NCBI RefSeq assembly: GCF_036846085.1
Contig: NZ_DAIUCO010000018.1
Location: 12,584-36,583 of the forward strand
Direction of reading: 5' to 3'
DNA: 24,000 bases
From: Noviherbaspirillum sp.
GTDB lineage: Bacteria > Pseudomonadota > Gammaproteobacteria > Burkholderiales > Burkholderiaceae_D
Below are positions 16,121 to 17,832 of this stretch, one piece after another. The position numbers and the translations under genes were made by a program. The notes below the pieces were generated by a model. That model was given only the letters and a program-made list of their open reading frames with translations, ran no database searches and was not told the DNA's origin. Each line of letters begins with the position of its first letter. Position 1 is the stretch's first letter.

Positions 16121-16191
16121 GCGGACGCGCATCTTTCTCCATGAAAGAATGTCGGGAATGCAGCTGATCGAAGGCAATGGCGCCTGCGGGC

Positions 16192-17442
16192 CTACTTGCA
16201 ATCGGCCATACCCTGCGTATCCGGCGACAGCGCCCAGTCGGCATGTTTTCCAGCAGCGTTGGTCGGCAACCGGTAACCGAAAGTGAACGCTTTCGGGCGC
16301 TCCGGCGTCGCCAGATGCGTCAGCGCCCAAGCCTCAAGCCGGATGCGCAGTCCGGCAAGGTCGGCATCGGGATGGCGAGGGACGATGAATGCCTTGAGCC
16401 GGTTGCCTTCATCGGCGCGCATCAGCCGCACCGACGCGTCGAACACGTCCGGATGCTGCATCAAGGCATGCCGTACTTTGGCCGGGAAGACATTGATGCC
16501 GCCAACCTGCACCGCATCGTCGATACGGCCAGTCGGGAGAAAAGCGCGTGCATCCTTCCACGCCAGCGTATCCCGGCATGCAATCACTTCCCGCCGCCCA
16601 TCGGCGTGACGGCGCTTCAGTGCGCCTGGCTGTCCGTCGATCCGCTCCCAATGGGAAAGGAGGCGGTATTGGTCCGTTGCCCGCACCCGCCAGCCCACGC
16701 CGGCGGTTTCCGAGCTGCCGTAGATTTGCACCAGGGTCTCCATGCCGGCATGGACAAGCGCGATGCTGACGTCATCCGGGCAGGGGGCGGTCGAGGTGAC
16801 GCCCATGACACCGGCGGGCATGGAAGGCAACAGCCGTACGGCCGCGCGCCAGAATTCCGGATGCCCGATCACGAGGTCGCCGTCCCGCAGTTCGCGTGCC
16901 AGCGCGGCAGGCGAACTGCCTCGCAAATCGATGACAGGTACGCAGGACAACCCGAGCATACGGGGCAGCAGGATGGTGAAGATGAATCCGTAGATGTGGT
17001 GGCTGGGGACGGCGGACAGGATGCGCCGGCGCGCCGGAAACAGCGCCGCCAGCTCCCGCGCCTCCTGCAGGAGTATGGCTGCAGGATGTGTGCACCGCTT
17101 GGGCGTGCCGGTGCTGCCCGATGTCGTGAAGGTGAGCCGCTCCGAAAAGCGCTGCAGTCCCGCGTGCGCCACCGCGATCCAGTCTTCCATCGTCGGTCGG
17201 GCCAGCAAGTAGTCTTCGATGCCGGATTCCTGCAAATGCAGGGCTTCCGCAAGCGCACTGGCAATCGCCAGGAGTTCGAGCGAGTCGACGCCGAGATCCC
17301 GGACGATGTGCGTGTCATTTCGCCATGGCCGCTGCGGAAGCGACGCGCCGGTCGGCCGCAGCAGCGCAACCTCGGCGGCGACGAGGTCGCTGATGAATCG
17401 CCGCAGGACTTCCTCGTCATCCCACCATGCCATGTCGGCCAT
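16192..17442 (-). CDS. pcl: 4-coumarate-CoA ligase-like adenylating enzyme of the PYP-activation type (pCL), with an N-terminal carrier-protein-like region
   Basis: 416 aa. The start lies 3 nt after the pyp stop. ANL motifs present: TFTTSGSTGTPKR, QIYGSSETAG, GRIDDAVQVGGINVFP and LPTNAAGKHADW. The N-terminal ~95 aa contain VRDLGVDSLELLAIASALAEAL. The function is assigned from its position next to pyp and from the known pyp-pcl linkage in other bacteria. Confidence 0.8.
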   Translation of the reverse strand: MADMAWWDDEEVLRRFISDLVAAEVALLRPTGASLPQRPWRNDTHIVRDLGVDSLELLAIASALAEALHLQESGIEDYLLARPTMEDWIAVAHAGLQRFSERLTFTTSGSTGTPKRCTHPAAILLQEARELAALFPARRRILSAVPSHHIYGFIFTILLPRMLGLSCVPVIDLRGSSPAALARELRDGDLVIGHPEFWRAAVRLLPSMPAGVMGVTSTAPCPDDVSIALVHAGMETLVQIYGSSETAGVGWRVRATDQYRLLSHWERIDGQPGALKRRHADGRREVIACRDTLAWKDARAFLPTGRIDDAVQVGGINVFPAKVRHALMQHPDVFDASVRLMRADEGNRLKAFIVPRHPDADLAGLRIRLEAWALTHLATPERPKAFTFGYRLPTNAAGKHADWALSPDTQGMADCK

Positions 17443-17445
17443 GAT

Positions 17446-17832
17446 TCAGATTCGCTTGACGAAAATCCAGTAGGAGCCGCCGCTCAGGGCTTTTTTCATG
17501 TGCACCTTCACCTTGGTCGGTTTCATCTCGTGATCGAACAGGTACTCGAACATGGTATTGAGATTGTCCGCTTTCACGCCGGCGTCGAATACGCCCTTGA
17601 AGCGGGTGGTTGCCGTGCAGGGCGCCACGTCACGGAAAAAATTCTTGCCGATCACCGATGCCGGATCGCGTCCGGTGATTGCACCTTCCGCAGCGTTGTA
17701 CTTTAGGACGGTGCCGTTCCTGTCGAGTTCAATCGCGCCGAAGGCAAGCTTGTCGATCTCTTTTCCCGACATTCGGTTCATGACGTTCTCGATATCGGTT
17801 TTGCCGAAACCGATCAGCTCAAGTTCTTTCAT
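17446..17832 (-). CDS. pyp: Photoactive yellow protein (PAS-fold blue-light photoreceptor, p-coumaric acid chromophore)
   Basis: 128 aa. [50 protein letters not shown] and [39 protein letters not shown] align gap-free with H. halophila PYP as I remember it. Equivalents of Tyr42, Glu46, Thr50, Arg52 and Cys69 are all present (Y45, E49, T53, R55, C72). GAGGA lies 7 nt upstream of the ATG. Confidence 0.95.

Follow-up and report, generated by a model that had tools for sequence, protein, structure and literature searches.

A predicted carrier-protein domain with a conserved serine in the PYP-linked 4-coumarate ligase

Photoactive yellow protein (PYP), a sensor of blue light, ranks with the best-studied model photoreceptors, and co-expression of tyrosine ammonia-lyase (TAL) and the 4-coumarate ligase pCL is the routine way of making its holo-form. 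According to the textbook scheme, pCL releases coumaroyl-CoA, which acylates PYP. A pyp-pcl gene pair in a 24,000-nucleotide stretch of DNA from Noviherbaspirillum sp. (contig NZ_DAIUCO010000018.1, positions 12,584 to 36,583; the whole stretch is called the window hereafter, and coordinates are window positions) raises the question of whether the chromophore might be handed over in another way, since the first residues of the ligase resemble a carrier protein. A sequence-only reading of the window had remarked on this resemblance, and had suggested that the chromophore may be tethered to a phosphopantetheine arm on the ligase itself, or that the domain may be an unmodified docking module for apo-PYP. 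Judging from structure prediction and family comparison, the ligase is an ANL enzyme in which the N-terminal subdomain has been replaced by a carrier domain. Databases already contain the gene family under a correct name, and the novelty lies in reading its N-terminus as a carrier domain with an invariant serine. The public domain annotation of the ligase lists PF00501 and PF13193 only, and the PYP literature that we searched mentioned neither a carrier domain nor phosphopantetheine, and yielded no link between PYP and phosphopantetheine in this sense or between PYP and aryl polyenes.

Both genes lie on the minus strand. The pyp gene (17446-17832) encodes a protein of 128 amino acids that matches TIGR02373 with 181.9 bits (cutoff 143) as well as the Pfam PAS fold, with Cys72 as the chromophore cysteine. 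Its TGA stop codon (17446-17448) is followed by a spacer of 3 nucleotides (ATC, 17443-17445) and then by the ATG at 17442 of the ligase open reading frame (ORF; 16192-17442), which codes for 416 amino acids plus a stop codon; pyp and pcl are probably translationally coupled. The ligase matches NCBIfam TIGR02372, the 4-coumarate--CoA ligase family for photoactive yellow protein activation, with 340.2 bits (curated cutoff 334.7), residues 9-400 covering positions 4-385 of the 386-position profile, so that score, full length and association with pyp all place it in this family. The model itself spans the N-terminal module (profile 4-87), and the module is therefore part of the family as curated. 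A profile search of the genome found no second TIGR02372-type gene, the other ANL enzymes scoring at most 54 bits. In size, ANL motifs and position downstream of pyp the window ligase is like the pCL of Halorhodospira halophila and Rhodobacter capsulatus, which belong to TIGR02372 too, and the architecture is identical. The sequence-only reading had given the same gene boundaries and named the right family, and the adenylation motifs, the Ser54 codon and the PYP cysteine were all found where it had placed them.

The ligase contains the adenylation motifs TFTTSGSTGTPKR (residues 104-116), QIYGSSETAG (239-248), GRIDDAVQVGGINVFP (305-320) and LPTNAAGKHADW (392-403). They belong to a truncated ANL catalytic core, residues 102-416 (16195-17139), which is delineated by Pfam AMP-binding and AMP-binding_C and by Foldseek. 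Within this core are the A3 P-loop TSGSTGTPK (residues 107-115, 17098-17124), the A5 motif YGSSET (241-246, 16705-16722), the A7/hinge motif GRIDD (305-309, 16516-16530) followed by the A8 hairpin VQVGGINV, and the A10 catalytic lysine K399 (16246-16248). G109, G242, E245, R306, D308, N317 and K399 are invariant in the family alignments. The P-loop begins at residue 107, earlier than its counterpart in benzoate-CoA ligase (residue ~174; Protein Data Bank (PDB) entry 4rlf) or in MatB (residues ~151-160; 3nyq). In line with this, the match to AMP-binding (PF00501, 49.6 bits) pairs ligase residues 107-252 with profile positions 170-330 of 384, followed by AMP-binding_C (PF13193, 27.5 bits) at residues 325-399, and solved ANL enzymes in the PDB align only from their own residue ~150-175 onwards. 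Because the Pfam match starts at position 170 and the PDB matches at ~150-175, the canonical N-terminal ~150 residues of ANL enzymes (the A1/A2 region) are missing. The ligase thus has the A3 and A5 motifs, the A7/A8 hinge, the A10 lysine and the two-domain fold of the superfamily, without the canonical N-terminus.

Foldseek aligned the AlphaFold2 model of the full ligase to ANL ligases over ~340 columns, with E 1e-18 to benzoate-CoA ligase. The root mean square deviation (rmsd) was ~5 Å to 3cw9, 4rm3, 5x8f and 3nyq, which are in the thioester-forming conformation, and 12-13 Å to adenylate-forming conformers, and the C-terminal domain of the model is therefore in the thiolation state. Among the top structural matches of the model was 4gs5, a mini-ANL of Dyadobacter fermentans (a 358-amino-acid 'acyl-CoA synthetase/AMP-acid ligase II-like protein' of uncharacterised function) that also aligns to positions 99-400 of the family profile. 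Only ~32 residues precede its core, and it lacks the carrier module of pCL. Another protein family may likewise have a short, non-canonical N-terminus of ~90 residues: positions 94-401 of the 414-position NCBIfam 'acyl-CoA synthetase' model NF006167 (PRK08308) correspond, with equal offsets, to ligase residues 92-399.

What occupies the N-terminus of the ligase is, by predicted fold and by homology, a carrier-protein domain (residues 1-98, 17149-17442). The AlphaFold2 model of the full ligase, built from an alignment of 98 sequences, has a mean pLDDT of 94.6 and a pTM of 0.91, and the module predicted by itself reaches a pLDDT of 95.2 and a pTM of 0.86. DSSP assigns helix I to residues 10-28 (17359-17415), which is followed by a long loop, helix II to residues 54-68 (17239-17283; the 'recognition helix' of carrier proteins), a short helix III to 78-81, and helix IV to 85-98 (17149-17190). 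Helix II starts at Ser54 (codon 17281-17283), which is part of the Asp53-Ser54-Leu55 (DSL) motif (17278-17286), the candidate site of phosphopantetheine attachment. After helix IV, a connection of 3 residues (99-101, 17140-17148) leads into the first core strand (102-106) and the P-loop. When the module alone was compared with the PDB by Foldseek, the best 50 matches were all acyl carrier proteins (ACPs), ApeE included, with probabilities up to 1.00, target TM scores up to 0.78, and an rmsd of 2.1-2.7 Å to E. coli AcpP.

Sequence profiles gave the same picture. Aligned by hhalign, the module profile matched a profile of 22 stand-alone ApeE-type ACPs with 94.3% probability (E 9.7e-08, 70 columns), with the Asp-Ser pairs in register. 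The profile of 74 N-modules searched against the PDB matched almost exclusively ACPs (best E 0.0023), as did nearly all of the weak PDB matches obtained with the N-terminus of the window protein as a single sequence, and PP-binding was the sole Pfam family to recur in the N-modules (34 of 74 members at E<=1, best 1.2e-05). The packing of ACP helices was also recovered by mean-field direct coupling analysis (DCA) of 333 family sequences (effective number 275), which placed helix I antiparallel to helix IV (pairs 8-97, 13-92 and 18-85) and against helix II. The module thus has the four-helix fold with long loop 1 and short helix III, the DSL motif at the start of helix II, and demonstrable homology to carrier proteins, and falls short of the Pfam gathering score. 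In the model it is packed onto the core, where it takes the place of the canonical ANL N-terminal subdomain. Both the early P-loop (residue 107 versus ~151-174 in solved ANL enzymes) and the carrier-like N-terminus suspected in the sequence-only reading are hereby borne out.

How could such an enzyme work? The ANL core would, judging from its motifs, bind ATP and p-coumarate and form coumaroyl-AMP. A cellular phosphopantetheinyl transferase (PPTase) would place a phosphopantetheine arm on Ser54, the first residue of helix II. While the C-terminal domain adopts the thioester-forming position, the thiol of this arm would reach into the active site in cis and accept the coumaroyl group. The coumaroyl-S-pantetheinyl enzyme would finally hand the chromophore over to Cys72 of apo-PYP in a transthioesterification. 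Free coumaroyl-CoA would not be obligatory, and the ligase would act as a self-loading aryl carrier with protein-to-protein delivery of the chromophore. The last step would have a chemical precedent, as apo-PYP takes its chromophore spontaneously from simple thioesters by transthioesterification (PMC6273459). With regard to geometry, DCA returned only three strong pairs between the module and the core (66-106, z 11.2; 69-104, z 8.5; 72-102, z 7.8), by which the C-terminal part of helix II runs antiparallel to the core strand (102-106) that leads into the P-loop. Because of this antiparallel arrangement, the Ser54 end of helix II probably points to the active-site side. That the ligase loads itself with the coumaroyl group and delivers the chromophore to Cys72 of PYP is, in our estimate, about as likely as not.

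The Asp-Ser pair is preserved throughout the family, which comprises 663 clusters at 50% identity (E below 1e-30). Among 144 representatives of such clusters, S54 is present in 132 and D53 in 129, a conservation on par with that of P-loop residues, and 122 have an acidic residue at position 56 (E56 in the window ligase), which corresponds to D38 of AcpP. S54 is also, like K399, one of 14 invariant columns in 35 full-length sequences with 35-53% identity to the window ligase, and no position besides D53 and S54 is invariant in the alignment of the 74 N-modules. Other well-conserved module residues are W88 in helix IV (140 of 144 representatives), L79 and L80, and three charged surface residues of helix I, R15, E24 and R29. 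Several lineages carry large variable insertions directly before DSL, which suggests that the tip of the module near DSL is solvent-exposed.

Ligase and PYP are also linked genetically. In a scan of one genome per species, which gave 80 loci (73 serine-bearing and 7 serine-less) from Pseudomonadota, Acidobacteriota, Verrucomicrobiota, Planctomycetota, Spirochaetota and Thermodesulfobacteriota, a hidden Markov model (HMM) of PYP found a pyp gene within 4 kb at 70 of the 73 DSL-bearing loci, often only a few nucleotides away. The other three are L030 and L044, for which little upstream DNA was available, and L042, with a full 4-kb flank. Ser54 is kept in all 70 PYP-linked loci. Conservation in pyp-linked ligases and a four-helix carrier fold were the two computational tests that the sequence-only reading had named for its proposal, and the module passes both. 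The family-wide pattern indicates that the putative attachment serine is under very strong selection.

The exception is instructive. At 7 Desulfovibrionales loci (L046, L064, L065, L076, L078, L079 and L080), ligases of the same length as pCL score 267-298 bits to TIGR02372 and at most 75 bits to any other model, and all 7 lack the Asp-Ser pair. Their N-module still aligns over its full length with the pCL module (hhalign 89.6%, 92 columns), while no similarity to ACPs is left (0.4%). The module homologue therefore persists without the serine, and the fold itself does not need it. The PYP HMM found no PYP at any of these 7 loci, and a stand-alone ACP is encoded ~2.3 kb upstream of the ligase at all 7 of them, compared to none of the 73 serine-bearing loci. 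The gene order is DUF2062, an LpxL-like acyltransferase, ACP, ketosynthase (KS), a KS resembling a chain length factor (CLF), and ligase (e.g. L076:15-4888), by which the cluster is recognisable as an aryl-polyene-like type II polyketide synthase (PKS). In the window, no ACP or KS gene lies near the ligase gene, whose neighbours are pyp and unrelated genes, and the same holds for the surroundings of all 73 DSL-bearing loci with respect to ACP and KS. Over the loci as a whole, the carrier signature therefore survives only where the locus provides no ACP in trans. The Desulfovibrionales ligases belong by score to the PYP-ligase family, and not to the tier of canonical ApeH ligases (90-150 bits). 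They share the family, the length and a homologous N-module with pCL, and differ from it in lacking Asp-Ser, ACP similarity and PYP.

The ApeH tier emerged when 400 genomes of the same class as the window genome were scored with TIGR02372. A few genomes had a full-length pCL-type match, and ~56 had matches of 90-150 bits restricted to profile positions ~95-385. The ligases concerned have a reduced canonical N-terminus, with 130-170 residues before the P-loop, and since they adjoin ApeE-type ACPs (GLGLDSIDALE), they are canonical aryl-polyene ligases. By HMM score, these ApeH-type ligases are the nearest outgroup of pCL. Experiments have shown ApeH to be a benzoyl-ACP synthetase: given ATP, and with no CoA present, it transfers p-hydroxybenzoate and likewise p-coumarate to holo-ApeE (PMC12624758). 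The closest characterised relatives of pCL thus load carrier proteins. Like pCL, ApeH activates small aromatic acids with ATP, and the pCL N-module is homologous to the ApeE-type ACPs; in contrast to pCL, where a carrier fold replaces the N-terminus, the carrier of ApeH is a separate protein, and the context is a type II PKS (KS/CLF) instead of a photoreceptor. Judging from this relatedness, pCL may load its aromatic acid onto a carrier pantetheine instead of CoA. A comparison can also be made with adenylation-peptidyl carrier protein (A-PCP) didomains, EntE/EntB and DhbE, in which an ANL core loads the pantetheine thiol of a four-helix carrier in the thioester-forming conformation, as is proposed for pCL. 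In those systems the adenylation domain has a complete N-terminus and the carrier either follows it on a flexible linker or is separate, whereas in pCL the carrier precedes the core, replaces ~150 residues and is joined to it by 3 residues. At its boldest, the reading is that pCL could be a minimal thiolation-adenylation (T-A) synthetase, born of a fusion of an ApeH-type ligase with an ApeE-type ACP in which the ACP replaced the N-terminal subdomain; Ser54 would be phosphopantetheinylated, p-coumarate would be loaded on the enzyme's own arm, and the chromophore would go directly to the PYP cysteine with no release of coumaroyl-CoA. PYP maturation would in that case be a protein acylation mediated by a carrier protein. 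We put this full scenario forward tentatively and rate it slightly below an even chance.

Several observations weigh against a self-loading carrier. Classical carrier domains shuttle between partners on flexible linkers, and the joint of 3 residues between helix IV and the core, together with the rigid docking predicted for the module (pTM 0.91), does not resemble this. Couplings of the residues flanking Ser54 (44-55) with the A5/A8 regions are at noise level (z 4-5.6): many pairs scattered over the protein are coupled as strongly as 55-314, 52-253 and 47-305 (z 4.8-5.6), and since the A5/A8 regions were defined after seeing the data, these couplings count as a lead at most. A Pfam search for PP-binding (PF00550), as proposed in the sequence-only reading, did return this family, with scores under the gathering score of 20.8 (15.4 bits for the full-length ligase, and 18.3 bits when residues 1-96 were searched alone) and a match of only 28 residues. 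Single-sequence Pfam and NCBIfam scans give only such sub-threshold, partial matches and so miss the carrier domain, which was seen with profiles and structure. A PPTase gene was linked to the ligase at none of the 80 loci, which carries little weight, as PPTases are usually unlinked.

The comparative evidence has its own limit, since the serine-less ligases form a single lineage and the complementarity of ACP and serine amounts to one evolutionary event. In maximum likelihood trees they make up one clade (SH-aLRT 94), which in quick trees with canonical ANL or ApeH-type outgroups is nested beside the pCLs of Idiomarina and Marinospirillum. Monophyly of the DSL-bearing ligases is not rejected by the approximately unbiased (AU) test (p 0.655), and the constrained tree even scores higher. 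For this reason a claim that this clade arose within the pCLs was dropped, a nested and a sister position both being compatible with the test. Because the module is of ACP origin, the missing serine is a loss under either topology. Finally, pCL is a CoA ligase in the accepted scheme, and its activity has been experimentally demonstrated according to a 2025 review (PMC12826048), while a 2014 paper speaks only of 'hints' of 4-coumarate-CoA ligase (4CL) activity of the PYP ligase (PMC3992019). The synthesis of 4-coumaroyl-CoA by TIGR02372 ligases is assigned by annotation, and statements in the literature differ in strength.

In the main alternative, the module is a former carrier that is no longer modified and serves as a structural stand-in for the ANL N-terminal subdomain. 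The enzyme would then be an ordinary 4-coumarate-CoA ligase that frees coumaroyl-CoA for apo-PYP, and there would be a local reason for the conservation of Asp53-Ser54, for example helix II capping or contact with the CoA phosphates. This agrees with the accepted scheme of the PYP literature (PMC12826048; PMC6273459), with the 3-residue linker and the confidently predicted rigid docking, and with the strong coevolution of helix II with the first core strand. The conservation of W88, L79 and L80 fits a fixed interface, and the presence of a homologous module without serine in the Desulfovibrionales clade indicates that the module has a structural role. However, a structural role gives no account of why D53 and S54 are the sole invariant columns of the module over at least six phyla, when T, N, D or G could also cap a helix, and the serine-less clade shows that the fold tolerates their loss. 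It also does not explain why the full ACP signature is kept only in lineages without an ACP in trans, and the nearest characterised relatives load ACPs and not CoA. We regard this alternative as unlikely, while taking it seriously.

A second alternative, which the sequence-only reading had already raised, is that the module is an unmodified docking platform. The carrier-like face formed by helices II and III with Asp53, Ser54 and Glu56 would bind apo-PYP and keep its Cys72 at the active-site exit, so that the PYP thiol attacks coumaroyl-AMP or bound coumaroyl-CoA directly and the enzyme is a PYP:coumarate ligase. The tight genetic linkage of ligase and PYP (70/73 loci, often a few nucleotides apart) speaks for such a partnership, as do the charges R15, E24 and R29 of helix I, which are conserved in the family and not in ordinary ACPs, and the loss of the conserved face in the clade without PYP. 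Yet an invariant Asp-Ser exactly at the attachment position of carriers is an unlikely docking requirement, and the clade without Asp-Ser did not merely lose PYP but gained an ACP in trans. Docking without modification is in our view improbable. Between the two options of the sequence-only reading, the comparative evidence, i.e. the serine-less clade with its ACP and the ApeH outgroup, favours the carrier. That DSL is a chance tripeptide in a helical N-terminal extension unrelated to carriers might be read from the sub-threshold, 28-residue PP-binding match, but is practically negligible given 50 ACPs among 50 Foldseek matches, the hhalign match to ApeE-type ACPs over 70 columns, the ACP helix packing recovered by coevolution, and the invariance of the motif across the family.

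The genome encodes one AcpS and a HetI/Sfp-like PPTase of 248 amino acids, the latter near nonribosomal peptide synthetase (NRPS) genes on contig C8. There are 22 PP-binding matches in the genome (NRPS/PKS carrier domains; contigs C1, C8, C124, C225, C264, C286, C335 and C343). With these many carrier domains and the HetI/Sfp-type PPTase near one of them on C8, a broad-specificity PPTase is available. As to a source of p-coumarate, no TAL gene adjoins pyp-pcl in the window, and 11 of the 80 loci have a TAL-like gene in the vicinity of the ligase. The single aromatic ammonia-lyase gene of the genome (G000:C241:6599-8068; L003:1378-3003, minus strand) is on a different contig from pyp-pcl. Its product scores best to histidine ammonia-lyase (HAL) models, yet under both HAL cutoffs (486 versus 539 and 491 versus 524), and the gene adjoins one for guanine deaminase and not hut genes. 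This ammonia-lyase may be an unlinked TAL that supplies p-coumarate.

If Ser54 does carry a phosphopantetheine arm, the chromophore would be delivered from protein to protein, insulated from CoA metabolism, and a suitable PPTase should be needed for efficient heterologous production of holo-PYP. Such a mechanism could also explain why, as is our impression from the literature search, plant and Streptomyces 4CLs are preferred over pCL in coumaroyl-CoA engineering. The ligase would be a minimal self-loading adenylation-carrier unit of 416 amino acids, with an unusual carrier-first, linker-less design that is attractive for enzyme engineering and PYP-tag labelling, and activation of the PYP chromophore would be linked evolutionarily to aryl-polyene biosynthesis. 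Even if the carrier mechanism fails, an unannotated, family-wide domain derived from an ACP in a curated enzyme family stands.

Some further observations concern the family and the locus. The TIGR02372 cutoff of 334.7 leaves out many genuine PYP-adjacent ligases (L035, L067 and others), with for example 322 bits for Allochromatium and 280 bits for Idiomarina. The window ligase clears the cutoff by 5.5 bits, and many of its relatives will be automatically annotated as 'AMP-binding protein'. At ten loci of Massilia and relatives (L011, L012, L017, L020, L021, L022, L024, L026, L028 and L032) the PYP-like neighbour is 25-34% identical to the window PYP, and its gene is on the opposite strand, upstream of the ligase gene, whereas most other loci have a co-directional PYP gene with a product that is 60-75% identical. 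These Massilia-type loci look as if they hold a second, divergent type of PYP that is paired with the same ligase family. A metagenomic protein of 1080 amino acids (P0161) is a family member that carries, by genuine fusion or through the gene call, a histidine kinase ATPase domain and a PAS domain at the C-terminus; this fusion is uninformative on the carrier question. In the window itself, a frame of 509 amino acids on the plus strand (16177-17706) runs antisense over pcl and part of pyp. Because homology backs the minus-strand ORF, the latter was accepted as the gene, and the plus-strand frame, which has no homology support, was rejected as a GC-rich shadow frame.

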